64,000 nt of DNA from an uncultured Acidobacteriota bacterium (GTDB lineage: Bacteria > Acidobacteriota > UBA6911). The notes under the pieces were generated by a model. The model worked only from the letters and a program-made list of their open reading frames with translations, made no database searches and was not told the DNA's origin. Made by a program: the position numbers and the translations under genes. The stretch lies in NCBI GenBank assembly GCA_963809485.1, contig CAWEJX010000004.1, positions 192,001 through 256,000 of the forward strand, read 5' to 3'. Below, in pieces: positions 15,907 to 29,829 of the stretch. The first letter of the stretch is position 1. Every line of letters begins with the position of its first letter.

Positions 15907-16328
15907 TATCCATGGCAAAGCGATTGTATCTGGATACCTCCGCGTATTTATGCATCCTGTTGGGCGAAACCGGGCACGAGAAGCTGGTCCGGGAAACAAC
16001 AGGGGCGGAATTGCTCTCCAGCGTTATCCTTGTGCTTGAAACCGGCAGAAACCTGATAAGACTTTCCCGCGAAGGTATTCTCACCGCCGCTGATTTTCAG
16101 GCATGCATGTCTGCCTTCAGTGACCATATGCAACAGTTTCTGCTGCGCGATCTCACTCTTGATTTATGCGGATCCATGATGATGCCGGTGGTCTCAACTC
16201 CTCGTTCGTTTGACCTTGCGCATTTACGCACAGCTCTGTGGTTTCATCAACGGAAGAAGCTCCATCGTTTTGTCACGCTCGATCAATCCCAGGAAATGTC
16301 CGCCCGTGAACTGGGATTGCCCGTATAG
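15903..16328 (+). CDS. PIN-domain (VapC-like) toxin
   Basis: LYLDTSA, RSFDLAHLRTAL, FVTLD..ARELGL; overlaps antitoxin stop. Confidence 0.88.
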   Translation: MISMAKRLYLDTSAYLCILLGETGHEKLVRETTGAELLSSVILVLETGRNLIRLSREGILTAADFQACMSAFSDHMQQFLLRDLTLDLCGSMMMPVVSTPRSFDLAHLRTALWFHQRKKLHRFVTLDQSQEMSARELGLPV

Positions 16329-16639
16329 GATATCGTCGCAGTCGACGAGCAGGCCCGGGGTAGCCTTTTCCATCAGGCATTTTCCGCTCATTCCCATTTC
16401 AAAAGATGGGAATAACCACTCGCTTTCCAATTCATGGAACGCATCCGGCCGATTCTCCTCAAAGCCAGGCGGCTTCCGGCTGCACAGAAACCTGATTCTG
16501 TCCTTGCCCGGGCAATTTTGCAGTGTACCCTTGCGACAAAGCATACCCAGCGACACATCAAAGCGCAGGGCAATCCATAGGATGAAAGGATCCGAAGCCG
16601 GGTGCGCCGATTGGAAAAGCGCAATGCGGCTTAGACGAT

Positions 16640-16951
16640 TTATCCGCTCAGGCCGTCGATCAAATGGAGGATGGCCAGGATGGGATGCCGTTTCAGCATG
16701 CGCGGGCCCGCATACCGCATCACGGTCTGGATCTTGTCGCGCATCTCCACCTTGTAGCAGTGAACGGAGCATTTCGCGCAGGTAGGTTTCTCATCCTGGA
16801 ACCGGCAGGTCTCGAGTCTGCGCCGGGCATAGGACTGCAGCGCGCTGCAATCCTCGCATAAGACGGTTTTATGCCCATGGTGATCACGGCAGTATATACG
16901 GATCATGGCCAAAACTGTCTTTTGTTCTCGTTTAATTCTGGAAGCGAGCAT
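16640..16951 (-). CDS. YgbA / nitrous-oxide-stimulated promoter family protein
   Basis: REQKTV..IYCRDHH..C..C..KPTCAKCSVHCY..MRYAGPRMLKRHP. Confidence 0.88.
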   Translation of the reverse strand: MLASRIKREQKTVLAMIRIYCRDHHGHKTVLCEDCSALQSYARRRLETCRFQDEKPTCAKCSVHCYKVEMRDKIQTVMRYAGPRMLKRHPILAILHLIDGLSG

Positions 16952-17087
16952 CTTATCGAACAGTCTGCCATGTGGCGGCACGGCATTCAATCGTCACCCG
17001 TCCATCGCATCGAGATATTCGAAAGCTGGCCATGCCAGGCAACCGGGACAACGTCAGCAACACGACAGTCGCACGACAGCAACAGTA

Positions 17088-17172
17088 GGACAGGCTGCGT
17101 AATTCCCTAATTCCCATAAGGTTGCCGGTACTGCAGGCACCCACATAGCTTGGGGAATTACATAGCCTGTCC
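17088..17172. repeat. GGACAG-type REP-like inverted repeat
   Basis: ggacaggctgcgtaattccc (17088-17107) and gggaattacatagcctgtcc (17153-17172), 18/20 match; half copy at 47468-47491. Confidence 0.7.
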
Positions 17173-17185
17173 CCCTTTTTCCCGC

Positions 17186-17219
17186 TTGATTCAATATATA
17201 AATACTTGTATATTAATGC
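17186..17219 (+). promoter_or_regulatory. Leaderless promoter with palindromic operator for the HigBA-like pair
   Basis: TTGATT-17 nt-TATATT, 5 nt before ATG; AATATATAA-ATAC-TTGTATATT inverted repeat. Confidence 0.7.
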
Positions 17220-17582
17220 ATGGCCGATAAGCCCCTTTTCTGGCTTGGATCCTCGCTTGCCGACTTGAGGTCCTTTCCCGCAGATGCGAGGCGGATTGCC
17301 GGATTTCAGTTGCGCCGGATTCAACAAGGGTTGGACCCAAACGACTGGAAGCCGATTCCCGCTGTCGGCCAGGGGGTCCGGGAAATCAGGATTCACATGG
17401 GGCTTGAGTTCAGGGTGCTGTATGTCGCGCAGTTTGCCGAAGGCCTCTATGTTCTTCATGCGTTTGAAAAACGGACGCAAAGGATGTCCAAATGCGACAT
17501 AGAGCTGGGAAGCAAACGCCTTGCAGCCCTATTGGCAGGAACGCGGGCCTCAAAACGCCAGTCAAAAAAAGGTAATTTATGA
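17220..17582 (+). CDS. RelE/HigB (Gp49-like) toxin
   Basis: WLGSSLADLRSFP..GLDPNDWKP..GVREIRI..FRVLYVA..VLHAFEKRTQ. Confidence 0.92.
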   Translation: MADKPLFWLGSSLADLRSFPADARRIAGFQLRRIQQGLDPNDWKPIPAVGQGVREIRIHMGLEFRVLYVAQFAEGLYVLHAFEKRTQRMSKCDIELGSKRLAALLAGTRASKRQSKKGNL

Positions 17583-17887
17583 GAGTCAAAATTACTCGGT
17601 CCAACCGCAATGTCTTCCGTGACCTTGGCTTCGATGTGCAGGAGGCGGAACACCTGAGGATTCGCGCCGATCTGATGATTGAGCTTCAAAAGCGAATTGC
17701 CGAAGGTGTATATAAACAGGCCGACGCCGCGAAAATCCTGAAAGTGACGCAGCCCCGGATAAGCGACCTTATCAATGGCAGGATTGATTTGTTCAGCACC
17801 GATACACTCATAGATATGCTGGCGCTCTTCGGCACCAGGGTCCATTTGATTCTAAAGCCTTCGCGCAATACCCGCCGAGTTGCATAG
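17579..17887 (+). CDS. HigA-like XRE HTH antitoxin
   Basis: NVFRDLGF, QADAAKILKVTQPRISDLINGRIDLFS; ATGA overlap. Confidence 0.92.
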   Translation: MRVKITRSNRNVFRDLGFDVQEAEHLRIRADLMIELQKRIAEGVYKQADAAKILKVTQPRISDLINGRIDLFSTDTLIDMLALFGTRVHLILKPSRNTRRVA

Positions 17888-17903
17888 CGATTTGATAGAT
17901 CGT

Positions 17904-18154
17904 AATTCGGGGTCGGACCACGCTAAATAACTGGCATTAAAGGGTAAAGGTGCAGTTTTGCAGGTCTAAATGGGCTTAGAGCAGAATTGGGGAGGGTATT
18001 TTTGACTGTAAGAAAACAGGGATGTCTCCAATCAGTATGAAAATCCTTACACGTAAAATATGCCGCCCCAAATTGCAGCCGGCCCTTTTATCGGTCCCGA
18101 AAAATTGGTTATCAATAATCCTGCGAAGGCTTTATCGTGGTCTCACCCCCCGTT
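17904..18154 (+). repeat. ~250-bp MITE/REPIN-like repeat, intact copy (empty target site of the integrative element)
   Basis: Termini ggggtcggaccacg..cgtggtctcacccc are inverted; body aligns with 22900-23003 plus 26917-26960 and with 20457-20617. Confidence 0.8.
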
Positions 18155-18203
18155 CGATTCAAAATAGATGGCGACAAGGCGTATATGATGGTAATATACT
18201 ACA

Positions 18204-18518
18204 GTGCCTGAATGGAACCGGGTGGAAGGCTTTGAATGGGATGAGGGCAACGCCCGAAAGAGCGCTGAGAAACATGGTGCATCTCAGGCTGAAGCGGAGT
18301 CTGTGTTCTTCAGTAATCCCTTGGTTGTTGTCCCGGATCCACGACACAGCCATGCGGAATCGCGCTACCACGCCCTCGGCCGGACAGTCTCAGGGCGGTT
18401 GCTGCATGTGGTGTTCACTCTTCGCCGCCGGGAGACGCTGATCCGCGTTATTTCCGCCCGTGACATGAATAGGAAGGAACGAACTGTTTATGCGAAAGAA
18501 ACGAAAGCCCATTCCTAA
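18204..18518 (+). CDS. brnT: BrnT family toxin
   Basis: GFEWDEGNARKS.EKHG, ESRYHALGRT, VFTLR..IRVISARDMNRKER; gtatat..atatac palindrome just upstream. Confidence 0.92.
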   Translation: MPEWNRVEGFEWDEGNARKSAEKHGASQAEAESVFFSNPLVVVPDPRHSHAESRYHALGRTVSGRLLHVVFTLRRRETLIRVISARDMNRKERTVYAKETKAHS

Positions 18519-18750
18519 GTTTTCCTCAGAGGCGGAAGAACGCGCGTTTTGGGAATCCGGCGATTCCACGGATTTTGTGGATTGGAGCCAGGCGAAACAC
18601 GTTCGCCTGCCCAAACTAAAACCGTCCACCCAATCCATATCGCTCAGGCTTCCTGTGATTCTTTTCGAGCGTATCAGAGTTGAGGCGAACAGGCGAGACG
18701 TTCCCTACCAATCCCTTATAAAGACTTGGCTCAGCGAGAAAGTGGGATAG
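18490..18750 (+). CDS. brnA: BrnA/CopG family antitoxin
   Basis: IPKFSSEAEERAFWES.DST, SISLRLP, DVPYQSLIKTWL. Confidence 0.9.
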   Translation: MRKKRKPIPKFSSEAEERAFWESGDSTDFVDWSQAKHVRLPKLKPSTQSISLRLPVILFERIRVEANRRDVPYQSLIKTWLSEKVG

Positions 18751-18897
18751 GCTTTGTTGTTCGAGTTCCTGTTCCAATGCCTTCCGGTTCGTAAACGCAC
18801 CGCGGGTTTTCTCAAAACCTTACAATGGATTCGCAGCCGGACCCCATGAACCGGCATTATTCATGAAGCTTCTGCTGCAGCGGCAAAGTCTCATGAG

Positions 18898-19095
18898 AAG
18901 GGGACAGTCACGACTGTCCCCTTTTTCTGATCGCAGGGGAGTATTACTTTGGAAGGTCACAAGCGGACAATGGGCTCACAGGACGCATACGAAGAAATCA
19001 CCCTCGCACCAGTGCTGGAAGAGTGGGGACGTCCACCTCGTTCCATTTTTTCGGCAGCTGAAAAGAAAATCGAGGCTTACGTCCCCGTTTCCCCC
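18898..19095. repeat. GGGGAC/GTCCCC REP-like palindromes
   Basis: aaggggacagtcacgactgtcccctt; ggggacgt (19025) with acgtcccc (19079). Confidence 0.6.
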
Positions 19096-19153
19096 CGGCA
19101 ATGGATGCGAGAAGCGGCCGGCAAGTAAAAAATTCATCTTAAAAAAAGAGACC

Positions 19154-19187
19154 ATAGTCCACTTTACTAATGAGTAAAGTGGACTAT
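19154..19187. promoter_or_regulatory. Perfect 15-bp inverted repeat (putative operator) before the AAA gene
   Basis: ATAGTCCACTTTACT-AATG-AGTAAAGTGGACTAT, 10 nt before ATG 19198. Confidence 0.65.
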
Positions 19188-19197
19188 AGTCCGTTTT

Positions 19198-20334
19198 ATG
19201 CGAGTTCCGCGTTATCTCGAGAGTGCTGTGGGCGAGGCGTTGCGCAAGAAGATGGCATTCGTCGGCGGTCCCAGGCAGGTCGGCAAAACGACGTTTGCGC
19301 TTGGCTTTCTCGGCAAAAATGCCGATGAAACGCACCCTGCCTATTTAAACTGGGACCGCCCGAGCGTTCCACCCAAATTGAGAAAAGCGGAAATGCCGGC
19401 CGGAGAGCCTCTCGTGCTTCTGGATGAAATCCACAAGTACGCCCGCTGGAGGGGCATGGTCAAGGGAATCTTCGATGTTGAGAAGTCCCGCGGAAAATTC
19501 CTTGTGACCGGTTCCGCCCGGCTCGATTATTATCGTAAAGGGGGAGACTCTCTCGCGGGCCGCTACCGGTAATTTCGTCTCCATCCCTTCTCTCTGAGAG
19601 AACTCAATCGCCACCCGTTGCGGTCGGACCTTTCGGCTTTGCTGCAGTTCGGCGGATTTCCCGAGCCTTTATTCTCGCAGAATGAACCGGAGCATCGAAT
19701 CTGGCGTCGAGACCGCATCGTGCGAGTCGTTCGACAGGACCTCCGTGATTTGGAACAGGTCCGGGAAATCAGTCTCATGGAACACCTGGCCGATTTGCTG
19801 CCGTCCAAAGCAGGTTCCCCGCTGTCGATCAAGAGCCTGAGGGAGGGCCTCCAGATCGACCACAAAACGGCGGAACGCTAGCTGCAGATCCTGGAGAATC
19901 TCTATGTCTGCTTCCGCGTCTCTCCCTATGGCCCCCCGAGGATCCGAGCCGTGAAAAAGGAAAGGAAGTTGTATCTCTGGGACTGGTCGAGCGTTGAGGA
20001 TGCCGGGGCTCGATTTGAGAACCTGGTCGCCTCTCAGCTTCTGAAGTATTGCCACTGGATTGAAGATACCGAGGGCTACCCGATGGAACTCAGGTACCTT
20101 CGAGATACGGACAAACGCGAAGTCGATTTTGTGGTTCTGAAAGATCGCAAGCCACTGTGGGCGGTAGAATGCAAATCAGGAGAGAAGTCCGTCGGTCAAG
20201 CGCTCCGCTACTTCGCCGAAAGAACCGCAATCCCTCGATTTTTCCAGACGCGTCTCGGCGAGAGGCACTTCGAAAGTGGCAAGATCACGGTGTTGCCATT
20301 CACGCGGCTTTGTCAAGAGCTCGAGCTGCCATAG
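19198..20334 (+). pseudogene. AAA_14 + DUF4143 ATP-binding protein with two in-frame stops
   Basis: GPRQVGKTT, LDEIH, TGSA, GGFPEP, FENLVA, EVDFV in one frame; TAA at 19570-19572 (RYR*FRLHP), TAG at 19879-19881 (ER*LQILE). Confidence 0.88.
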
Positions 20335-20456
20335 CGCCGGGGGGCTTGAAACAATATGAGAAAAGATCACGGTCTTGCGGGTTTTCTGTTAGGAGATTGT
20401 ATCCGATGCGATATCGGTTCATCAGCTGCTGCGATATCGTAACGGTGTCACGGGCT

Positions 20457-20617
20457 TGGTATTTTTGGCTTCAGAAAAATCAGCAAGGTCTTCAAACATA
20501 GTGAAAATCCTTAAATTCAAAAAATGCCGCCCAAAATTGTGGCTAAGTCATCTTTCCAGCCCCAATAATCGAGCTATCGATTTTTTTGCAAAGGCATTAC
20601 CGTGGTCTGTCCCCGTT
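20457..20617 (+). repeat. Diverged partial copy of the 17904-18154 repeat
   Basis: gtatttttg..tgaaaatcctta..aaaatgccgcccaaaattg..cgtggtctgtccccgtt collinear with 17996-18154. Confidence 0.7.
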
Positions 20618-20728
20618 AAACCATTTCTTTTCTATGGGCGCCCATCCAATTTTGCTATATTAGCTCTACCCGATTGATCCCACATTGCATGCATTGAACC
20701 CGATGTCGACGTGGAGGAAGCGCTCCCT

Positions 20729-21339
20729 ATGATCGGCAAGACGCTGGGGCACTATAGAGTCGGCGAACAGCTTGGCCGCGGAGGCATGGGGGAAGTCTTT
20801 GTTGCCGATGACCTCAATTTGAACCGCAAGGTCGCCCTCAAGTTCCTTCCCGAAGCATTCACGGGCGATCCCGAAAGAATGGCCCGCTTCGAGCGCGAGG
20901 CCCGACTTCTGGCATCGCTCAATCATCCCAGCATCGCTGCGATCTATGGACTCGAACAGGCCGAAGGCAAGAGGTTCCTCGTCCTGGAACTGGTAGAGGG
21001 CGAGAATCTGGCGCAGAGGACCGGCTGTCGAGGGCCCCTAATCAATTGCTATGGTACGACCGGCAGGGAAAAGTCCTCGGATCCGTTGGACCGCCGGGCA
21101 TCTAATCAATTCCGGTAATTTCTCCGGATGGCAGGCGATTCGCGGTCAGGACTGCGCCGGATTTTGAAGCCGGTGTCCCTGTTACTCTTTTTAATGCCTT
21201 TCCCGGCGCCTGGCGGACCCGGAACAATTTCGATGTCACAAGCGACGGGCAACGCTTCCTCATTGTCAGCCTGACCCGGGACGAGACCACTTCATCGATC
21301 ACCGTTACTCTTAATTGGACTGCCCTGGCAAAGAAATGA
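20729..21339 (+). pseudogene. Collapsed Ser/Thr kinase with PD40/TolB-like C-terminus
   Basis: MIGKTLGHY..LGRGGMGEV..VALKFL..RFEREARLLASLNHPSIAAIYG, then QLLWYDRQGK..ISPDGRRFAV, then NFDVTSDGQRFL..ITVTLNW; catalytic loop missing. Confidence 0.85.
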
Positions 21340-21451
21340 CGCTCCCCCACCCTCTTCCGGGCCCTGCTGCGCAATATAAACCTGAATTTACCTGCAATAC
21401 CGCCCACAAGGAGTTTATAGCCTGACGGTAAAAATGCTCGCACGATTTCCT

Positions 21452-21482
21452 TGCAAATTAGAGGGCGGCGCTCTAATCTGCA
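21452..21482. promoter_or_regulatory. Inverted repeat (putative operator) before the second AAA gene
   Basis: TGCAAATTAGAG-GGCGGCG-CTCTAATCTGCA, 4 nt before ATG 21487. Confidence 0.6.
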
Positions 21483-21486
21483 TAGT

Positions 21487-22647
21487 ATGTGGCGACGCCT
21501 GGCTCAAACGAGATTGCGTGCACTCTGGCGGCAGTTTCCGGCCGTGCTGATTTTGGGAGCGCGCCAGGTCGGCAAAACGACACTGGCCCGCCAGACATTT
21601 CCCGGCTTTCCCTACTGCGACCTGGAGGAACCGCACCTCCGTGCACTGTTTGCCGACGATCCGACATTCCAGATCCAACAACGTTCGCGCCCCGCACTCA
21701 TTATTGACGAAGCTCAGGCCGTGCCCGCTGTTTTTAATTCACTGCGCGGAATCATCGACGCACATCGCAAGAAGAATGGCCGCTTTCTGTTGCTTGGTTC
21801 GGCGCAGCCTTCGCTGGTCCGCCAGATTTCCGAATCGCTCGCCGGCCGGGTCGGAATCCTGGAATTGGACCCGCTTACCGCAGCTGAGGCCGCCACGGGG
21901 GACCGGGCGCGAGACTGGCAGCAATTATGGCTGCAGGGAGGTTTTCCCGATGCTTTGGGCGGCTCCTTTCGCGAATGGTGGGAAGCCTACTTGCGGACTT
22001 ATGTGGAGCGCGACCTACCTCAATTGGGAGTTCCTGCAGATCCCATTCTGCTGCGCCGCCTGCTCACGATGCTGGCGCACATCCAGGGCGGCATGCTCAA
22101 TGCTTCGCAACTCGGCAACTCCCTGGACGTTACGTACCATACGGTGCAGCGCTACCTGAGCGTTCTTGAGCAGACCTTCATTATCCGGCACCTCCCGCCA
22201 TACTATCGCCACATCGGGAAACGCCTGACGAAAGCTCCAAAAATCTATTTGCGCGATACCGGACTGCTGCACCATCTGCTCAATATCAATACGCTGGAGG
22301 AACTCGATCATCATCCCCAGCGCGGCGCCAGCTGGGAGACGTTTGTAATGGAAGACCTCATTCGCAGAGAGAAACTGCGCCATCCGCACGCGCAATTCTA
22401 TTATTGGAGAACTGCGACCGGAGCAGAGCTTGACCTGTTGCTGGACCGCGGATCCCAACGCATTGGAATTGAGATTAAAGCCGGGCGAGGCGACAAAACA
22501 ACTATTGCCCGCGCAACCGAGCAGATTGCCAAGGATGCAGGCGCCACTTCGGTTTGGATTCTCGATCAGGCTGCAGGTACGGAGGCTCTCCGGCCATCTG
22601 TCCGGCGGCGCGGCTTCGCCGAAAGCCTAAAATGGCTTCCCTCCTGA
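21487..22647 (+). CDS. AAA_14 + DUF4143 ATP-binding protein
   Basis: GARQVGKTTLA, IIDEAQ, LLGSA, ESLAGR, GGFP, TYVERD, KAPKIYLRDTGLL, ELDLL..IEIK. Confidence 0.92.
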   Translation: MWRRLAQTRLRALWRQFPAVLILGARQVGKTTLARQTFPGFPYCDLEEPHLRALFADDPTFQIQQRSRPALIIDEAQAVPAVFNSLRGIIDAHRKKNGRFLLLGSAQPSLVRQISESLAGRVGILELDPLTAAEAATGDRARDWQQLWLQGGFPDALGGSFREWWEAYLRTYVERDLPQLGVPADPILLRRLLTMLAHIQGGMLNASQLGNSLDVTYHTVQRYLSVLEQTFIIRHLPPYYRHIGKRLTKAPKIYLRDTGLLHHLLNINTLEELDHHPQRGASWETFVMEDLIRREKLRHPHAQFYYWRTATGAELDLLLDRGSQRIGIEIKAGRGDKTTIARATEQIAKDAGATSVWILDQAAGTEALRPSVRRRGFAESLKWLPS

Positions 22648-22785
22648 TACACTAGCCTGGGCCTCACTGCGAAAAATAAACCTGGCCGAATAATTCGAGA
22701 TTCGATCTTTGTGGAATTAGCGAACTTCATGGCATTCTGCGTCTTGAAATCCATTACAATGTGCCCAACACGATTCTATCAAATT

Positions 22786-22871
22786 GTATTGAACCGGTTG
22801 TCGACGTGGAGGAGGCGCTCCCGATGATCGGCACGACACTCGGGCATTACCGGATCACCAGCCAGCTTGGA
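22786..22871 (+). pseudogene. 5' stub of a second Ser/Thr kinase gene
   Basis: ttgaaccggttgtcgacgtggaggaggcgctcccgATG ATC GGC ACG ACA CTC GGG CAT TAC parallels 20694-20760. Confidence 0.75.
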
Positions 22872-22899
22872 TTAGGGGGTAATTTGGACAATTAGTGAC

Positions 22900-23003
22900 A
22901 ATTCGGGGTCGGACCACTTTAAATCACTGGAAGGGGAAAGGTGCAGTTATGCGGGCCTAAATGGGCCTAAAACAGAATTGAGGGGGGGCATTTTTGATTG
23001 TAA
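22900..23003 (+). repeat. Left half of the interrupted ~250-bp repeat (target, left flank)
   Basis: aattcggggtcggaccac..ggtgcagtt..ctaaatggg..cagaattg..tttttgattgtaa aligns with 17904-18011. Confidence 0.85.
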
Positions 23004-23022
23004 TTGACCGGCCAATCGCTGC

Positions 23023-24171
23023 CTATTTTTCTTCTCCAGCCGATCCTGAAGGGTGGAGTTTTTTCAGTTTGCTTGACACCTTGGCAAGCCGATTGATGAG
23101 GCGCTGCATTGTAAGCTGTTGTTTTGAAGCGTTGAGGCCTCGCCGATTCATTTCGAGGAAGTGCATCGCATCGGCAATGCACTGGAGAGCACGGATATGA
23201 GGGTGTACGGATTGGTTACGGGGATTGCTGCGTTGCGGCAGCTGGTAGAGGTTGGCCAGGTTGGCTCGGGCCGAACTATATTCGCGTTGTAGATCTACCT
23301 GACTCACCTCTACATAACGCATTGTCATTTCGATTTTTGTATGTCCGAGGAGTGTTTTGACTGCAGGCAGGCTGGCGCCGCCGCGGAGCATCTCGGTCGC
23401 AAAAGTATGTCTCATTTGATGCGTCGTGATTCGGGACGCACTGCAGTTTGCTTTTCGGGCCGCTTTCCTGATCATCGCGACCATTTGGCTATACGAAGGA
23501 CGGGAGCCATCTTCGCGCATTAGCAAGAAGGTGGATAATTTTCTGGCCTTAGCCGGGGCTCGATTGCGCAAATCATCGAGGTGTTCAATAAGACTACGGC
23601 TATGGGCGTCCAAGGGAACCAATCTTTCCGTATGCATCTTGCCGAGAGGGACGCGGATTGCCCACTGTTGATCGCCCAGATCCCGGAAGCAATCGACTGC
23701 GAGATTCAAACATTCACCAACGCGCATACCGGTGGCACGCATGAGAAGCAGCGCAGTTGCTTCAACGGTGCCTTTTTTGCGGAGTTCTTCGCAAATGAGG
23801 CGATCATCTTCGGGCGAGAGGGGCCGGGGAAGGTACTTGTCCAGGTGTGGGAAGTCTCGGCGAACGATGAGGTTTTCTCTTATTCGGTCTATTCCTTCAT
23901 CGGCAAGGTCGCGAAGGCACTTGCGTAGCTCATAGAGTTGGTGGAGACGGGTGCAGGTTCGGGAGCTGGCCAAAGTTGAGATCCATCCGAGGATATGCGG
24001 ATCCCGCCTGAGTTGGGAGAGCTTATGAATCTCGGGGTGGTTTTGTTTGAGGAAGCGCATGAAGCCATTCAAAGTGCTTCGATACCGATACATCGTGTTT
24101 GGCCTGTGAACAATAGCAAGACTCTGAAGATAGGAATCGAAGATCTGTTGAATAGTGCGCGGTTTACTCAT
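23023..24171 (-). CDS. Tyrosine recombinase 2
   Basis: TGMRVGE, GKMH, HQMRHTFA, LGH, MRY: full R-K-HxxR-H-Y set; ATG overlaps upstream gene end (GATGAGTAA). Confidence 0.93.
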   Translation of the reverse strand: MSKPRTIQQIFDSYLQSLAIVHRPNTMYRYRSTLNGFMRFLKQNHPEIHKLSQLRRDPHILGWISTLASSRTCTRLHQLYELRKCLRDLADEGIDRIRENLIVRRDFPHLDKYLPRPLSPEDDRLICEELRKKGTVEATALLLMRATGMRVGECLNLAVDCFRDLGDQQWAIRVPLGKMHTERLVPLDAHSRSLIEHLDDLRNRAPAKARKLSTFLLMREDGSRPSYSQMVAMIRKAARKANCSASRITTHQMRHTFATEMLRGGASLPAVKTLLGHTKIEMTMRYVEVSQVDLQREYSSARANLANLYQLPQRSNPRNQSVHPHIRALQCIADAMHFLEMNRRGLNASKQQLTMQRLINRLAKVSSKLKKLHPSGSAGEEK

Positions 24172-25222
24172 CGAAGGAAGCACTCCGGAGTTGGGCCAAC
24201 GCTTGCGATCGCTTTTCGACGGCGCGGTGATATTCCCGCCAGACATCCTGGGGAGACAATTCCACGTAGAGCATGGTCGTGTGAATCTGAGAATGACCCA
24301 TGAGTCGCATCAGTGCGGGTACTGAAACGCCGGCACGGATCATGTCGGCACCGAAGGTGTGGCGGAACCGATGCGGGTGGGCGTTGATCGTTTGAGTCGC
24401 ACGTCGATGGTGACGAAACAACGAACGCAGGCCGGCGGATGTCATCGGTTGGCCGCGCCGCCATCCCTTGAGAGAAAGAAACAGGAGGGGCGACCCGAAA
24501 GCAGGCCGTTCGAATTCGAGATAACGCCTAAGAACCCGAATGATCGCATCTGCCAATGGCAGAACCCGCTGTCTGTTTCCTTTGCCACGAACAAAGATCT
24601 GAGTCTCGGAAAGCCGCAAATCTTCGAGCCGGAGTTGGATCGTTTCATGGGAACGCAGGCCGTTAAAAAGCATCAATCCCACGAGACTGAGGTCACGGAA
24701 GGTGCGAAAGCTGGACCAGAAACGTGAAACTTCATCAGGCTGGAGGGGGATGACGACTTTTCGAGGTTGTCGTAACCGCAGTCCCGCGATTGCGGTGCTG
24801 GGTTTTCCTATGCCCATTGGACTTCGTCTCTTGTATCGGGTTTGCACACTGGCGCGAGTTCTGGGGACTTCCTTCTGGTAGTAGAATCGGTACAGGGATC
24901 GGACAACCACCAAACGATGATTGACCGTAGGCGGCGACGGCTTGGGTTCGTTTTCAAGTTGGTATCGAACGTAATCGAGCAGACGAAGCTCGTTGAGAGT
25001 GGATAGACTCGGCCAGCGAGAACCGTGTAACCACCAACGGACGAAGTTCAACAGATCGAACCCATACGAGCGCAAGGAACGGACGGAAAGGTTGCGCAGG
25101 TACTGGGCATCCAGAAAATCATTGATGAAACGGACCGGCTGGTCCTTAGAATCCAAGAGTTGATAGGGAGACATGCCCGCAGGGCCGGATGGGTAACGAA
25201 TGAGATGAAAAGGCGGGGTCAT
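24164..25222 (-). CDS. Tyrosine recombinase 1
   Basis: GLRSHE, GKGNRQR, HRFRHTFG, MGH, MLY; ATGA overlap with primase stop. Confidence 0.93.
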   Translation of the reverse strand: MTPPFHLIRYPSGPAGMSPYQLLDSKDQPVRFINDFLDAQYLRNLSVRSLRSYGFDLLNFVRWWLHGSRWPSLSTLNELRLLDYVRYQLENEPKPSPPTVNHRLVVVRSLYRFYYQKEVPRTRASVQTRYKRRSPMGIGKPSTAIAGLRLRQPRKVVIPLQPDEVSRFWSSFRTFRDLSLVGLMLFNGLRSHETIQLRLEDLRLSETQIFVRGKGNRQRVLPLADAIIRVLRRYLEFERPAFGSPLLFLSLKGWRRGQPMTSAGLRSLFRHHRRATQTINAHPHRFRHTFGADMIRAGVSVPALMRLMGHSQIHTTMLYVELSPQDVWREYHRAVEKRSQALAQLRSASFDE

Positions 25223-26226
25223 ACACATTGTGCTTCCTCCAGACATCTTGTGAAATCAGCAGCGGTGGCTCCGGAAACAAAGAAACTATTGGGATCATGG
25301 TTTTCCGGAAGCGGTACGATCTTCGATTGCAGACCGGCCTCCCGGAGTTGCCGTGCCAGTTTCAAAGCAGCGCGTTGACCGGCAGCATTCGTATCCGAGT
25401 CAAAAGCAATGAAGATCTGTCTATTGAGATCGTCGCATAGTTGGGCAAACTGCTTGCCTGTCAGGTGGCAGCCGAGAGCGCTGGTTGTATTGCGAAAGCC
25501 AGCCTGCCAGAGAACCGCAAGATCGAAAAGGCCTTCCACCAGGATAACGTTGGGAGCATTGTGAATCGACTCCCATGCGACCAGGCCGATCCTAACACGA
25601 GGCAGAAATCGATGTGGCGGCGGGGGACCGATGCTGCGTCCGTACAGATTGACGATGCGGTTCTGATCGAGACAAGGAAAGACGATGCGGTGAAAGAAGG
25701 TGTCATGCCCCTTTTGATTTATCAATCCAAGATTCACGAGCCGGTCGTAATTGTGGCCGCATACCGATAACAGGTGCCCACGCAAACTGCCGCCTGGCGC
25801 ATAGCCCAATCGAAGGTGACGTAATATCTCTGGATCCCGCAATCCGCGTTGGTGAAGATAGTTCATCGCTTCCTGGTGGTGCTGCAACTGATACTGGTAA
25901 AAAGCGACCGTATCGCGGAGGAGGTCGTCATCACCCCTGAGCTTGTCCCATTCTCCGGCCAGCCGTGCGACGCTATCGCGGAAAGAAAGGTTGAAGTAGA
26001 CCTGGACGAAGCGAATCAAGTCGCCGCCATAGCCACAGCCATGGCAGTGAAAAAGATTTTTCTCGGCGTTGACATAGAACGACGGCTGGGTCTCGGAGTG
26101 CAGCGGGCACAATCCAACATATTCGTTCCCTGAACCCACAGGACGGCCAGTCCAATTGAGGCGTTTGAGATAATCCAACAGTGGAAGATCGCGCTTAAGT
26201 TTTTCCACTTCCTTGCAGTTTGCCAT
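25219..26226 (-). CDS. DnaG-like primase (CHC2 zinc finger + TOPRIM), no helicase-binding tail
   Basis: CPLH..PSFYV..FHCHGCG.GGD, RIVFP, YGR, VEGLFD, FDSD..AG, DPN. Confidence 0.9.
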   Translation of the reverse strand: MANCKEVEKLKRDLPLLDYLKRLNWTGRPVGSGNEYVGLCPLHSETQPSFYVNAEKNLFHCHGCGYGGDLIRFVQVYFNLSFRDSVARLAGEWDKLRGDDDLLRDTVAFYQYQLQHHQEAMNYLHQRGLRDPEILRHLRLGYAPGGSLRGHLLSVCGHNYDRLVNLGLINQKGHDTFFHRIVFPCLDQNRIVNLYGRSIGPPPPHRFLPRVRIGLVAWESIHNAPNVILVEGLFDLAVLWQAGFRNTTSALGCHLTGKQFAQLCDDLNRQIFIAFDSDTNAAGQRAALKLARQLREAGLQSKIVPLPENHDPNSFFVSGATAADFTRCLEEAQCV

Positions 26227-26609
26227 CAGAGCCTCCGGACGGGAACGCCTGTTCGGCCGCAAATGATGCAGGCGATACGTTCGAGAGGGTTTGCTCTCGC
26301 AGATCCGACGTTCCCTGACTTTGATGGATCGATCCTGACATTACTGTCTTGGCTTCTGGAACCCTGATACGTCACGCTTTTTTTATTGGACTGGCGCAGA
26401 CGATAGTTGCGCTGGTGGTCTCGATGGTCGAGTTTGCCTAAGGGACTTTGCCGGTAGCGTCTATTCGCTTCGCGCAGTTGGTGCCGGCGGGCGCGGTCCC
26501 GACATGCCTGACTGCAGTAGTGCTGTCCGCGATCGCAGTGACTGCAGATATGGAATATCTTGCCGCACCCCGCGGCATGGCAAGATCGTTGCCGGAGGAT
26601 GAGTTCCAG
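26226..26609 (-). CDS. Cys-rich basic protein (127 aa, CTG start proposed; absent from ORF track)
   Basis: LELILRQRSCHAAGCGKIFHICSHCDRGQHYCSQACRDRARRHQLREANRRYRQS..VTYQGS..CIICGR; GAAAGGA upstream; TGATG coupling to primase. Confidence 0.72.
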   Translation of the reverse strand: MELILRQRSCHAAGCGKIFHICSHCDRGQHYCSQACRDRARRHQLREANRRYRQSPLGKLDHRDHQRNYRLRQSNKKSVTYQGSRSQDSNVRIDPSKSGNVGSARANPLERIACIICGRTGVPVRRL

Positions 26610-26916
26610 GGGCCAATCGTCCTTTCCCGAAGGCGGGACTCGACAACGGCCCCCATGTCATGGCACGCTAAAGACGACTTTGGTTCTGGGAGCTTTAACC
26701 GGGCTCTTGGAATTTAGCCTCGATCGTTACAGCGGTCGGGGCTTTCTTTTTCCGCCTTTCACGCCGCCACGATATCACCACCAGGGCTCAAGAAATCTAT
26801 TGCAGTTACCCAGAAGCAAAGAACACGGCTGAATAAAAGAGAAACCAGCTGAAAGAAAAAATAGGCAGCCACTCCTGGGCTGGTTTAGAAAAAACGACAT
26901 TTTGGCCGGTTAATAG

Positions 26917-26960
26917 GTAAGAAATCGGGGATGTTTCCAATCAGAATGAAAATCCCTACA
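26917..26960 (+). repeat. Right continuation of the interrupted repeat (target, right flank)
   Basis: gtaagaaatcggggatgtttccaatcagaatgaaaatccctaca matches gtaagaaaacagggatgtctccaatcagtatgaaaatccttaca at 18008-18051. Confidence 0.85.
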
Positions 26961-27044
26961 TACTCAGCATCTTTTCGAAGGGCGGCGCGTCAGGCGTTTT
27001 GTGAGAATTGAATCTGTGGCCATGCGCGAACCTACTCATAAGGT

Positions 27045-27085
27045 TCAGCGTTCATCGGCGTTTTTGTCAGCGTAGGTCAGCGTTA
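27045..27085 (+). repeat. TCAGCGT-array element copy
   Basis: tcagcgttcatcggcgtttttgtcagcgtaggtcagcgtta. Confidence 0.8.
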
Positions 27086-27109
27086 AAAGGGCCTGGAGCC
27101 CCGGCGCAG

Positions 27110-28582
27110 CTAAAAAGCTTCCCGTATCTTCGCCGCCCAGTGGACGAAATTGCCGTAGAGGTGCCCAAGGTGGGGCGCCGGGGAAAAGTGCCCGTGCCTG
27201 AGGTCCGTCTCCAGGGACTTTTTCATCAGCTCCATCGGGATATTTTTGCTGTCGGGCAGCGTGCGGTCGTAAAAGAACAGCAATTCAACATGGGCGCCAT
27301 GGCCATACTCGATCGGGATAATCTGGAAATTATTCGGCGCGTTTAAAATCAGCTTCCTATCGATGAAGTCGTTGAGGAACTCCGGAAACGCTTTAGCTAT
27401 CTCACAGGTGTGGCGGAGCGAGTCTGCGTGCAGGACCGGCGCCCACCCTCCGCCAAGCTTCAGCACGCGTTGCAGGAAACTCACGATGATGAAGAAGTCC
27501 ATATTGTCTTCCCATATCTTACGAATGGATGGATCGACTTCTTCTCCCCCAGTTTCTCTGACGATATCCCACAGGACCCGCTCCTCATACGCCGTTTCCT
27601 CCGGAGACGAGGTGGCCAGGTAAACCCAGACCGCGCAGGACAGCTCTTTCTGGAAAAGTCCGCTGTTCCACAGCGTCCAGAAATCGTTGGCCGAAACCGT
27701 GAACATCACAGCCGCAGTGGCATAGAAGAACTTCAGCACCGCCGCACCGATTTCGGCTCTGCCCATTTCGATCATGAAATCGCGGGCCTTTTCGAGCGCA
27801 GCAAACTTGAAGATAAAGACTTTGTGGCAGTCCTGAGGCAGGCGGACCTTGTACGATGGAGTGCGTCCAAAAGACGGCATGACTGCAGGCCCTTTCCAGG
27901 CGTCCAGGCCAATGGCTGCCTTGGTAAAAACGCCGCGCCCCTTCTGAATCAAGCCTACCAGACTTGGTCCGGGCCCATCCGGGCAGAACCATCCGGCGTC
28001 ACCTCCAAGAGAGCCGGCCCTGAGAATTTCGCCTGAAGGCATCACCCACTCGTATCCCAGCAGATAGCGGTTATTCTTCGAGGTGCTGTGCTGGTTGTGG
28101 TGTTCCCCCTTGCCCAGAAAGTTTGACATTACCGAGCACGACGGTCCTACGGACGGGACCGGATAGCTCAGTCCCCTTTTCATGAGTTCCGGCTTCAACT
28201 GGACATGCCGGACTCCGGGCTCAACCACCACGTAGCGGTCCTCTTCGTTGATCTCCAGGATCCGATTCATTCGTCTCAGGCTGAGAATGATCTTCAGCTT
28301 GGGGCCGGGCGGCATTCCGGCGGAAAGGAGCGAGACGACTGAATTGCACTGGATGTCGTACTGCCTGCATATTTTGACGACAGCCTGCACCTCTTCGGTA
28401 TTGCCCGGCAAAACGACGGCATCGGGGCTTGCGGGCTTGCGGCCATCCTGGGGCGAAGTGTGCCGGTAGGCGGCGAGGATATGGGGGCGGCCACTTATGT
28501 ATTCTTTCCCCACAACGCCTTCGAGCATCCTGAAAATATCTTCCGGTAAGCTCATGCGATCGATCCCTTCCCTTTTAATCAA
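27110..28582 (-). CDS. FAD-binding oxidoreductase (GlcD/PCMH-type)
   Basis: AVVLPGNTEEVQAVVK, LRRMNRILEINE..VVEPGV, EWVMPSGEILRAGS. Confidence 0.88.
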   Translation of the reverse strand: MIKREGIDRMSLPEDIFRMLEGVVGKEYISGRPHILAAYRHTSPQDGRKPASPDAVVLPGNTEEVQAVVKICRQYDIQCNSVVSLLSAGMPPGPKLKIILSLRRMNRILEINEEDRYVVVEPGVRHVQLKPELMKRGLSYPVPSVGPSCSVMSNFLGKGEHHNQHSTSKNNRYLLGYEWVMPSGEILRAGSLGGDAGWFCPDGPGPSLVGLIQKGRGVFTKAAIGLDAWKGPAVMPSFGRTPSYKVRLPQDCHKVFIFKFAALEKARDFMIEMGRAEIGAAVLKFFYATAAVMFTVSANDFWTLWNSGLFQKELSCAVWVYLATSSPEETAYEERVLWDIVRETGGEEVDPSIRKIWEDNMDFFIIVSFLQRVLKLGGGWAPVLHADSLRHTCEIAKAFPEFLNDFIDRKLILNAPNNFQIIPIEYGHGAHVELLFFYDRTLPDSKNIPMELMKKSLETDLRHGHFSPAPHLGHLYGNFVHWAAKIREAF

Positions 28583-29829
28583 AGCGCGCGCACGACAAGC
28601 TCGCAGAAATCATGGTAGCCAAGCCCATTTTTTCGAGTCTCCGCAGCTTTTTGGAAGCTGGATTGGCAAAAGGGGCAGCTGGAGACTATGGCTTCTGCAC
28701 CCGTGGAAGCGGCTTCTTCAATTCTTTCGCCGGCTGTCCAAAGCGCAAATTCCGGGAACGCGGCGGGCACGCCTCCTCCGCCCCCGCAACAGAACGCGTT
28801 TTCCTCGTTCCGGGTCATCTCGAGCAACTCGATGCCGGGAATCGAGCGCAGAACCTGGCGCGGCGCGTCGTAGACGCCATACGTTCCCCTGCGCCACTGC
28901 TTCGGAGGATCGTGATACCCGTACGGTTTGATTTCCCCGCTCCAGGGCACATACAGCTCCGAAAGCCTGCCGAGAAGGCACGGATCATGATAGGTCACCC
29001 GGATATCCGGAATCCTGCCCGGCCTTAGTCTGCCGTCCTGCAGCAGCCGGCTCACAACTTCGCTGATGTGCAACACTTCGAAATCCAGGCCGGCGAGTCT
29101 CGGATAAAAGCCCTTGAAGGTTCCATAGCACTCGGCGCAGCTTGTAATCAGTGTCTTTATCCCCAGCTTTTTTATTGCTTCCAGGTTATGCCCGGCCAGT
29201 TGTGCAGCGGCCTGTCTTTGTCCGGTCCGCCACAGCGGCGCGCCGCAGCAGTATTCTTCCGCGTACAACAGAGTGAAATCGATTCCGGCGGCGCTCAGGA
29301 TCTTTACTGTGTCGCGGGCGATGCCGGGGTATAGATAGGAGGCGGTGCAGCCGGCGAAATAGGCTGTCTGCGCTCCCTCGGATACCCGCAAACCCTCGGG
29401 CACCCAGTCGAATCGTTCTTTATGCGCCAGTCCATAGATGTTGTGACTGCCGGCGGCATGCACGGCCTGCTCCCTGTGCTGCGGCATCGGTCCCCGGCCG
29501 TCCTCAACGCACTTCGCCCTGAGAGCAAGGATTGTGTCCAGGACTTCCATGTCGCGGACCGATTTGCAGTTGATATCGCAGGCGCCGCAGGTTGTGCACG
29601 CATAAATATGCGCCAGAAGATCCTCTTCATACTCGAGGGTCCCTTCCAGAAGCTCCTGTGCGATATTAATAAGCCCCTGCCCGGAATAGGAATCGAACTT
29701 ATATCTCTGGTATATGGGGCAAACCTCCGAGTATTCCCAGCCTTTCATTTTGGGGCCCAGGATAAAACGGCACTGGCCGCAGTGATTGCAGGATTCCATG
29801 GTGTATTTATAGTCGCCCAGCGTATCCAT
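28579..29829 (-). CDS. (Fe-S)-binding CCG-domain protein (GlcF/HdrD-like)
   Basis: CNHCGQC..CP, CTTCGACDINC, CCG, SCAEC, YHDPC, CCGGGGG, SCPFC. Confidence 0.92.
   Translation of the reverse strand: MDTLGDYKYTMESCNHCGQCRFILGPKMKGWEYSEVCPIYQRYKFDSYSGQGLINIAQELLEGTLEYEEDLLAHIYACTTCGACDINCKSVRDMEVLDTILALRAKCVEDGRGPMPQHREQAVHAAGSHNIYGLAHKERFDWVPEGLRVSEGAQTAYFAGCTASYLYPGIARDTVKILSAAGIDFTLLYAEEYCCGAPLWRTGQRQAAAQLAGHNLEAIKKLGIKTLITSCAECYGTFKGFYPRLAGLDFEVLHISEVVSRLLQDGRLRPGRIPDIRVTYHDPCLLGRLSELYVPWSGEIKPYGYHDPPKQWRRGTYGVYDAPRQVLRSIPGIELLEMTRNEENAFCCGGGGGVPAAFPEFALWTAGERIEEAASTGAEAIVSSCPFCQSSFQKAAETRKNGLGYHDFCELVVRAL

Follow-up and report, generated by a model that had tools for sequence, protein, structure and literature searches.

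Transposons that move by means of tyrosine recombinases are few and poorly understood. The subject here is one such element, which occupies positions 23004-26920 of a 64,000-nt stretch of DNA (hereafter, the window) from an uncultured Acidobacteriota bacterium (UBA6911; assembly GCA_963809485.1, contig CAWEJX010000004.1, positions 192,001-256,000). It is ~3.9 kb long, carries no cargo, and consists of four minus-strand genes, which encode a small zinc-ribbon protein (OrfZ), a DnaG-type primase, and two tyrosine recombinases, A and B. The built-in primase, which may complete a single-strand exchange, sets the element apart within the tyrosine-recombinase transposons. Related elements are abundant in uncultured soil and sediment bacteria, with at least 464 loci among species-representative genomes, and the family suits study: four genes, 3.9-4.0 kb, no cargo, and sharp ends.

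An earlier annotation of the window made from its sequence (the original prediction) had proposed a Tn554 connection, and this lead proves sound in that the nearest annotated relatives of the recombinases are those of actinobacterial Tn554-like pairs. The best annotated matches of recombinase A are to the short recombinase of such pairs (33-37% identity); for recombinase B the identity is ~30%. The matched pairs, found on plasmids of Rhodococcus, Dietzia, and Mycobacterium, comprise adjacent genes for a short and a long recombinase (the latter 564 and 655 aa in the two inspected), followed by a DUF6262 gene. One of these pairs is on pBD2, which a passage of Van Houdt et al. (2012, PMC3414803) lists among the carriers of actinobacterial transposons related to Tn554, although the agreement with that listing is at the level of the plasmid only. 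Another passage of that paper gives 611-828 aa for the Tn554-like long recombinase and ~350 aa for the short one beside it. Recombinase A, with 352 aa, fits this description, whereas recombinase B, with 382 aa (407 aa at most), is too short for the long partner. Further points of likeness are the two adjacent, same-strand tyrosine recombinase genes with a small accessory gene, site-selective insertion, a core of 6-7 bp, and the lack of a classical target duplication. However, Pfam reveals no TnpC/DUF6262 gene; the small open reading frame (ORF) here is instead a zinc ribbon located upstream of the primase gene rather than downstream of the recombinase genes. The element also adds the primase and the zinc-ribbon ORF themselves, clear inverted-repeat arms, and a constant spacer. 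Thus, from comparison with the actinobacterial pairs rather than with Tn554 itself, the element appears to be a distant relative of the Tn554-like transposons that fails their defining features.

Passages of a 2023 paper (PMC10214605) describe the route of Tn554 as still unresolved and present the strand-biased circularizing elements (SEs) as a recently recognised group, found only in Gammaproteobacteria. As portrayed there, SEs have an intA-tfp-intB-srap gene set that includes two tyrosine recombinases, their terminal inverted repeats are imperfect, the spacer measures 6 bp, and joining is strand-biased; they carry cargo genes, their median length being 15.7 kb. The 6 bp of the target become the spacer of the next circle, so the spacer is replaced with each move. 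The element in the window resembles an SE in its two catalytically complete recombinases, encoded together with accessory genes in one operon at one end, and in its short imperfect terminal inverted repeats, short spacer, and asymmetric flanking sequences; for SEs, copy-out via one specific strand has been proposed. Unlike an SE, it has a primase, keeps its 7-bp spacer, is only 3.9 kb long and free of cargo, and belongs to a family found in several other phyla. The SE core set is not apparent among its four ORFs, which include no third recombinase-fold gene, although no profile search was aimed at tfp or srap and the zinc-ribbon ORF could still have a srap-like role.

A second parallel is provided by the VGJ-type integrative elements that exploit Xer (IMEXs). 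According to passages of Das (2014, PMC4246890), homology between the attP of VGJ phage and dif is confined to the XerC side; strands are exchanged by XerC alone, and integration as well as excision is completed by host replication. Like these elements, ours has a double-stranded attachment site with two arms, a central region of ~7 bp, and homology beside one arm only, and its recombinases score best on XerC, XerD, and XerA models. IMEXs, however, use host XerC/XerD and insert at dif. The present element has two recombinases of its own (109-122 bits versus cut-offs of 330-335), neither of which reaches the equivalog cut-offs for chromosomal XerC or XerD. It inserts at many sites other than dif, and a primase takes the place of the phage replication module.

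Two other groups are less similar. RIT and GInt elements also have compact, overlapping tyrosine recombinase genes, are bounded by inverted repeats, and are thought to transpose, but they contain three recombinase-fold genes and no primase, while the element has two recombinases. In family locus L074 (7983-11151), and at the same place in L078, three overlapping tyrosine recombinase genes that resemble a RIT element (412, 317, and 358 aa; on the opposite strand) sit in the 3' part of recombinase A and lengthen the host element to ~7.4 kb. This nested insertion indicates that RIT elements and the primase-bearing family are distinct. Tn916 and CTnDOT share with the element tyrosine-recombinase transposition that tolerates overlap mismatches. 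These, however, are large, conjugative elements with a single integrase that has an arm-binding domain, and their variable coupling sequences segregate to either end. For CTnDOT, a passage of PMC2817482 states that homology is needed only at one end of the 7-bp overlap. Together, these comparisons suggest that the element works like a VGJ-type IMEX or an SE, while being a member of neither and not a RIT.

The element and its core site

In what follows, sequences in gene orientation have the primase-side arm (L arm) first and the arm beyond recombinase B (R arm) last. The left junction on the + strand is tttttgatt GTAA / TTGACCGGCCAA; here the R arm (TTGGCCGGTCAA in gene orientation) covers 23004-23015 and adjoins the 3' end of the recombinase B gene. 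At the right junction the + strand is TTGGCCGGTTAA tag GTAA / gaaatcgggg, and the L arm (TTAACCGGCCAA in gene orientation) occupies 26902-26913. The L arm is recognised by the arm pattern of the family and by the inverted repeat; the R arm is family-conserved and forms the same end in a second copy of the element (below). The two arms constitute a 13-nt inverted repeat with 12 of 13 positions complementary, and the exact 12-mer TTGGCCGGTYAA (0 mismatches) is present within the 64-kb window at the two element ends only. Next to the L arm lies the element-borne 7-bp spacer (26914-26920), TAGGTAA on the + strand and TTACCTA in gene orientation, which is the same in both genome copies. When the ends are joined, this spacer comes to lie between the 12-bp inverted arms. 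The tyrosine-recombinase core that the original prediction had drawn, with two 12-bp arms around a 7-bp spacer, is thus upheld by the complementarity of the arms, by the register of the family's ends described below (56 of 58), and by the presence of two complete recombinases.

A second inverted repeat lies inside the arms. Its halves, at 23018-23030 and 26857-26869, are complementary at 13 of 13 positions and are placed asymmetrically, the former 2 nt inside the R arm and the latter 32 nt inside the L arm. The G+C fraction of the element (0.538) is close to the 0.553 of the window.

The element interrupts a target repeat. Its left half (22900-23003) ends in the target 7-mer ATTGTAA (22997-23003); its right half, identified by aligning the joined flanks, is at 26921-26960. 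Of the 7 bp carried by the window copy, only GTAA is common to the spacer and the target, as had been predicted. An uninterrupted paralogue of the repeat at 17904-18051 can stand in for the empty site. Local alignment of this paralogue with the script-joined flanks (22900-23003 plus 26921-26960) shows no gap at the junction, the point on which the claim of an empty target at 17999-18035 had been made to depend; the only gaps, of 5 nt and 1 nt, are both more than 40 nt away from it. The target 7-mer ATTGTAA and its counterpart in the paralogue, ACTGTAA, agree at 6 of 7 positions.

A second copy, relatives, and element-free sites

The genome (21 contigs, 6.04 Mb) contains exactly two copies of the element, that in the window and one at 257815-261727 of contig C7, which are 100% identical over 3913 bp. 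The identity ends 4 bp beyond one end and 5 bp beyond the other, and the flanks are unrelated, with GTAA on both sides of each copy. Thus, the ends chosen from the window copy alone are also those of its sibling. Together with the empty target, this confirms that the element is a real, discrete mobile unit.

The C7 copy borders a different short dispersed repeat (C7:257700-257820), which has at least 10 further matches in the genome and more in relatives of the genus. Uninterrupted paralogues of this target at C7:384716, C20:257415, and C6:16012 align to 1-5 nt beyond the junction and are gapless there. Among 29 genomes of the genus, no orthologous empty site for the C7 copy is found; the conserved gene nearby aligns only to ~130 nt from the junction, and the contig of the closest relative stops there. 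Nor is there a copy of the element in 40 relatives (24 from the genus and 16 from the class, a set that includes the unpublished G034), in which a long chromosomal dnaG is the only counterpart.

Pieces of the element are present at 100% identity in the assembled contigs of three metagenome runs from one study (shares of 0.13, 0.06, and 0.05); no RNA data set is listed as containing it. In addition, 22986 and 26918 are joined in a 151-nt sediment-metagenome contig, which thus represents the window locus without the element. Because 2-3 bases around the core differ, this contig is read as a variant allele rather than as an excision product or proof of excision.

Ends and spacers across the family

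The family of the element was sampled as the best 80 of the at least 464 loci. Arms of the same sequence, ~3.95 kb apart, delimit related elements in other genomes. To locate ends, a pattern for both arms was built from the observed arms. Looser calls, with 3 mismatches, included spurious pairs (L031, L068, L078), and the stricter pattern was used for the counts. Both arms are present, 3.7-4.3 kb apart or ~7.4 kb apart in the two copies with nested elements, in 60 of 98 stretches, which correspond to 58 distinct insertions once the duplicates L017 and L083 are dropped. The L arm has the consensus (T/A)T(A/T)ACCGGCCAA and the R arm TTGGCCGGT(C/T)A(A/T), and in most subfamilies the inverted repeat extends 4 nt further inward. 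Since the pattern was derived from observed arms, the conservation of the arms is partly circular; the register of the flanking sequences, however, hinges on the placement of the arms and not on their exact sequence. In 56 of the 58 insertions, the 3 nt outside the R arm are the same as the 3 nt starting exactly 7 nt outside the L arm, while other registers (3-6 and 8-12) yield 0-1 matches. Family-wide, then, the joined arms are 7 bp apart, which is the core geometry of a tyrosine recombinase.

The 7-mers outside the L arm (L7) and the R arm (R7) can be compared position by position. They agree at positions 1-7 in 57, 57, 57, 53, 32, 23, and 35 of the 58 insertions, against ~24, 25, 19, 29, 16, 13, and 17 expected when R7 is shuffled. 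The length of the leading identity, from 0 to 7 nt, is distributed as 1, 0, 1, 4, 22, 13, 1, and 16. By this count, a match is all but compulsory at the three overlap bases next to the R arm and almost as strict at the fourth; at the last three it is favoured yet dispensable. Simple copying of the leading 4 bp from the target is contradicted by one group, in which L7 starts with GTCG in all three copies of one genome and two of the three targets start with GTCA.

The two 7-mers also differ in their constancy. In 12 of 14 groups of elements that are at least 90% identical and inserted at different sites, L7 is the same in all members, while R7 varies with the site. Across the groups, the extra variants number 2 for L7 and 12 for R7 (one-sided binomial p = 0.0065). 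A hand count of the insertions in which L7 and R7 differ, leaving aside four groups in which both are constant, places the group's common 7-mer on the L side alone in 16 cases and never on the R side alone; in 2 cases (L033 and L059) neither side has it. The two copies in this genome conform to the pattern: both have L7 = TTACCTA, with R7 = TTACAAT in the window and TTACCTG on C7. The window R7 matches its paralogue, TTACAGT, at 6 of 7 positions. In the closest relatives, L7 is TTACCTC (L095, 82% primase identity) or TTACCCG (L014, 77%), and their targets again start with TTAC. On this sequence evidence, L7 is the overlap borne by the element, always on the primase side, and R7 is target DNA.

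These counts divide the remaining part of the original prediction, which had read the mismatched bases as mismatch-tolerant coupling sequences. Tolerance is evident at positions 5-7; coupling behaviour is not, given the constancy of L7 in 12 of 14 groups. The change of spacer expected for the Tn916 or Tn554 type was sought by comparing spacers across copies and is contradicted by the 2 L7 versus 12 R7 changes; no copy carries the target 7-mer of a sibling. The primase, the fourth gene, and the size of the family had not figured in the original prediction.

A proposed mechanism and its alternatives

In natural insertions alone, homology is one-sided and the junctions are asymmetric in a fixed way, and from this we infer that only one strand pair is exchanged. 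We propose, with a confidence slightly above even, that the element is a four-gene transposon in which such an exchange is finished by synthesis that its own primase starts. In the joined, circular form, the arms would flank the 7-bp overlap carried by the element. Insertion occurs at targets matching the first 3-4 overlap bases on the recombinase B arm side, with the remaining bases free. In excision as in insertion, the gene-sense strand alone would be exchanged, cut at the boundary between arm and overlap, and the junction would be completed by DNA synthesis instead of a second exchange. The element primase would start this synthesis, for example on a single-stranded or nicked circular copy, and transposition would thereby be copy-out and copy-in. 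The same slightly-better-than-even estimate, made jointly for this mechanism in full, covers the view that the window copy is intact and was recently active, which the sequence suggests.

The obligatory identity at positions 1-3, by the R arm, would then reflect a requirement of the first gene-sense strand exchange at that boundary. For Xer recombination, a passage of PMC4246890 states that the freed 5' end must pair 2-3 bases with the partner duplex before ligation. A single exchange followed by synthesis would keep L7 with the element, leave the target 7-mer at the R end, and restore the original target upon excision. Precedents are VGJ phage, which uses host XerC at dif in this manner, and SEs, with recombinase pairs of their own. 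The primase is assigned its part in completing the product because it is invariably in the operon, has an intact active site, and lacks a helicase-binding domain, and because the element encodes neither an initiator nor a helicase with which its circle could behave as a plasmid. A stricter form of the proposal, which we consider doubtful but worth stating, is a self-priming transposon: only the gene-sense strand would be exchanged, a single-stranded or nicked circular copy would form, the donor would be retained, and a primer laid by the element's primase would be obligatory for converting this copy, or the unresolved junction at the target, to duplex DNA. We know of no transposon class with an obligatory, element-encoded priming step; if the stricter form is true, self-priming transposition would operate in a family spread across at least six bacterial phyla. 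With a primase and site-specific recombination in one operon, the completion of single-strand exchange products in any case becomes testable.

Several observations weigh against this mechanism. The argument for the primase is one of gene linkage alone, and SEs and VGJ phage do without a primase of their own. The element has two recombinases although the arm sequences at both ends are nearly identical. The sequences would also fit a second exchange only 3-4 nt away, or biased repair of a heteroduplex, and cannot separate these from a single exchange. A joined or circular form, sought as the pattern R arm-N7-L arm, has 0 matches in collections of genome contigs and viral contigs and in 110 loci, and no joined ends are seen in the assembled contigs of the three metagenome runs. 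Contigs of ~4 kb such as L069 were considered as circles and rejected; they are integrated copies cut within their flanks. For the 277-nt non-coding end on the primase side, single-strand folding is not significant (z = 0.53 and -0.56 for the two strands), and thus gives no sign of a priming hairpin. Group copies share ancestry, so that the counts above are not counts of independent events, although their direction never reverses. Finally, there are exceptions: L7 deviates from that of the group in L033 and L059, and the leading identity is shorter than 3 nt in L093 and L078. In L033, L7 is TCGGCAG, compared to TCGGCAA in the near-identical L034 from the same metagenome-assembled genome (MAG), and the odd G matches position 7 of the L033 target, TCGGTTG; this could be either a patch of heteroduplex repair or a point mutation. 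In L093, a complete MAG chromosome, positions 9159-9189 hold the R arm, 7 nt, and a 10/12 match to the L arm, followed by unrelated coding-like DNA, and the leading identity there is 2 nt. This site could be a target with an arm-like half-site or the scar of an earlier element.

The alternative that deserves most attention, though we judge it improbable at something like one chance in four, is conventional cut-out/paste-in movement, in which both strand pairs are exchanged 7 bp apart, the double-stranded circle is briefly plasmid-like with the help of the primase, and biased mismatch repair or selection accounts for the constancy of the 7-mer. That both recombinases have full sets of catalytic residues, as if each cuts one strand pair, speaks for it, as do the 16 of 58 insertions in which element and target agree at 7 of 7 positions and would permit ordinary two-strand exchange. 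The seemingly chimeric 7-mer of L033, part element and part target, points the same way, and the pairing of an integrase with a primase is common to many integrative elements. Yet two-strand exchange across mismatches would leave heteroduplex joints, and after replication the element 7-mer would be found at either end; the observed segregation is 16:0. Moreover, neither a replication initiator nor a helicase nor origin-like repeats are present in the 3.9 kb, the collections named above yielded no circular contig, and no member of the family occurs on 72,556 plasmid records.

Conservation of the primase-side 7-mer also bears on the idea that the three unmatched bases derive from the previous site, as in Tn916 or as a Tn554/SE footprint. 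Such carry-over would give a new spacer with each move, a pattern that is not seen: the two copies in this genome have the same primase-side 7-mer despite different targets, this 7-mer is uniform in 12 of 14 groups, and it never equals the target 7-mer of a sibling except where element and target 7-mers coincide. We therefore consider it very improbable, even though the two end 7-mers of the window copy do differ and the recombinases are distantly related to Tn554-like ones. Still less credible is a 4-bp target-site duplication, in which GTAA would stem from a staggered cut by a DDE transposase or a Toprim-type nuclease and the recombinases would serve, for example, in resolution. GTAA is indeed doubled at both copies, and 4 nt is the commonest leading identity (22 of 58). 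The leading identity, however, varies in length from 0 to 7 nt, and the GTCG elements with GTCA targets do not fit a duplication; furthermore, by Pfam the element encodes no DDE, HUH, or serine enzyme, and its Toprim part belongs to a complete DnaG primase core. An equally slight chance attaches to the element being a decayed or domesticated remnant, i.e. an immobile integration module of a satellite or prophage. The combination of integrase and primase is a common module of satellites and prophages, and copies are few, with 2 in this genome and 3-7 in five others. Against this stand the 100% identity of the two copies over 3913 bp with all four frames open, the sharp boundaries set by conserved arms in many phyla, the lack of phage genes inside, and the lack of fixed orthologous positions, there being no copy in the 40 relatives. 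Single-strand exchange completed by synthesis is the simplest reading of the junctions, subject to the points raised against it above.

The genes of the element

The four genes overlap one another, each stop codon with the next start. OrfZ (26226-26609, minus strand) is a small arginine-rich protein of 127 aa when read from a conserved CTG, with zinc-ribbon-type cysteine pairs followed by an arginine-rich stretch. Its frame is open to 26657, and the first ATG, GTG, or TTG comes no earlier than residue 95. The start is placed at 26609, with reservations, because all five inspected relatives have a CTG at the corresponding Leu codon (TTG in L014) and the frame upstream is not kept among relatives. 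OrfZ has no Pfam family and is probably a DNA-binding accessory factor. Two further minus-strand ORFs in this region, 26438-26656 and 26461-26661, were rejected as genes: relatives match them simultaneously in two frames, which indicates conservation at the nucleotide level, and the reading frame is not preserved from one relative to another.

The OrfZ stop overlaps the primase ATG (TGATG). The primase (25219-26226, minus strand, 335 aa) consists of a CHC2 zinc finger and a catalytic core with Toprim domain (PF01807, 5e-20; PF08275, 5e-10; PF13155, 2e-16). In 22 family sequences, residues C40, H43, C61, and C64 of the finger and E231, D235, D276, and D278 of the Toprim domain are invariant. 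The best relative of known structure is 2au3, the zinc-finger-plus-polymerase fragment of Aquifex DnaG, which matches residues 6-316. The protein lacks the C-terminal domain that binds the helicase DnaB; its 335 aa compare with mostly 582-692 aa for the chromosomal dnaG frames of relatives, and it fails the full-length DnaG equivalog TIGR01391 (181 bits versus a cut-off of 283.6).

Recombinase A (24164-25222, minus strand, 352 aa; PF00589, E 2.3e-31) has a start that overlaps the primase stop (ATGA). The ATG of recombinase B (23023-24171, minus strand, 382 aa; PF00589, E 6e-31) overlaps the recombinase A stop by 8 nt, and an alternative start at 24246 would give the 407-aa protein. In stop-to-stop numbering, the catalytic residues are R201/K225/H295/R298/H321/Y330 for recombinase A, at least 90% conserved in the 37 sequences kept of 44, and R196/K224/H297/R300/H323/Y332 for recombinase B, likewise at least 90% conserved in 37 kept of 45; the sequences dropped are mis-picked ORFs with less than 30% identity. 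Recombinase B has a tail of ~90 aa beyond the catalytic Tyr, and its best relatives of known structure are Xer-type chains. For both proteins, the best NCBIfam models are XerC, XerD, and XerA, and the scores are far below the cut-offs: 119.5 and 121.6 bits for the XerC equivalog (cut-off 335.15) and 117.4 and 109 bits for XerD (cut-off 329.6).

Extent of the family

The family was collected with an alignment-based profile over one genome per species, a single-protein query having yielded one distant relative only. At least 597 stretches match, and the at least 464 loci mentioned above are those that encode a primase relative. Among the matches listed, the hosts are mostly Acidobacteriota (Terriglobia, Bryobacterales, Acidoferrales, Blastocatellia), with Planctomycetota, Nitrospirota, Verrucomicrobiota, Methylomirabilota, Acidimicrobiia, and Alphaproteobacteria as other labels. 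The labels of short MAG contigs may be wrong; the Acidimicrobiia copies are on contigs of 167-449 kb. On the plasmid records, the best primase identity is 32%. In metagenomes, 6010 of 8000 scored candidates are relatives of the primase at E <= 0.001, many of which are likely to be ordinary DnaG. The best 120 have 57-100% identity; all but one are 329-376 aa long, and many are on contigs of ~2-5 kb. A metagenome scan yielded 10 loci, of which only L095 has both ends of a close relative. We found no description in the literature of a primase and two tyrosine recombinases in one transposon, in a search that did not extend to the supplementary tables of PMC3414803 and PMC10214605, which might list relatives. 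Elements of this family account for many ~4-kb contigs and contig breaks in metagenome assemblies, and the conserved arms together with the 7-bp rule permit automatic annotation of both elements and insertion sites.

In the 80 loci, the order primase, recombinase A, recombinase B is found in 80, 79, and 74 for the three genes, respectively, the misses being contigs that end early. Five long-read genomes contain 7, 6, 3, 3, and 3 primase copies, and 22 of their 23 recombinase A genes are directly downstream of a primase gene. The remaining one, at G042:C3:1661541-1662512, has no adjoining primase match at E <= 1e-60 and may be a truncated or primase-less variant.

The gene upstream of the primase is more variable. 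At E <= 1.5e-5, tblastn matches OrfZ to 8 of the 80 loci, although the match in L040 is outside the element and the one in L018 is weak. The L040 match (4678-4881; 56% identity, 68 aa) is an OrfZ-like frame ~280 nt past the R arm, possibly part of a neighbouring element of another subfamily. A zinc-binding DUF6431 ORF occupies the upstream slot in L042 and L051 (37-39 bits, cut-off 26.6) and, by eye, in L021; most other family members appear to carry such an ORF instead of OrfZ. In the literature, DUF6431 is found in two unrelated papers only. A third arm-like 12-mer, TTGGC[G/A]GGTCAA, characterises a large subfamily that comprises L042 (5349), L063 (5355), L080 (5348), and ~25 other loci, and includes both scanned DUF6431-type loci. 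It lies ~113 nt inside the primase-side arm and is inverted relative to that arm; the window element does not have it and has the 13-bp subterminal inverted repeat instead.

Target sites and surroundings

Both insertions in this genome lie within intergenic repeats. Read in gene orientation, targets of the window subfamily start with TTAC (both copies have GTAAG on the + strand) and are A/T-rich; no resemblance to the arms is seen in them. Several acidobacterial subfamilies are more selective, inserting at repeated palindromes of the form CCGGTT-N-7-mer-AACCGG or in contexts such as ...cggcctt CTCATGG aagg... The spacing of half-sites in these targets differs from that of the element core, so they are not claimed to be true pseudo-core sites.

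The target repeat in the window is ~170 bp long and has 8 further matches in the genome. An Rfam scan of 16000-29000 returns a chance microRNA match only (E 0.27), indicating that the flanking repeat is no known RNA family. Three copies of it, one partial, lie ~2.5 kb apart in the window, at 17881-18080, 20458-20539, and 22900-23003 plus 26921-26960, and other copies are paired ~1.5 kb apart on C7. Between the repeats are toxin-antitoxin pairs (Gp49-like; BrnT with a CopG-type antitoxin), genes or fragments of AAA_14/DUF4143 ATPases, and N-terminal kinase fragments, a layout that resembles a cassette array. Ser/Thr protein kinase genes are represented at 20711-21118 and 22800-22880 by short N-terminal fragments that stop just ahead of the repeats, an arrangement suggesting that the 170-bp repeat marks break points or cassette borders.

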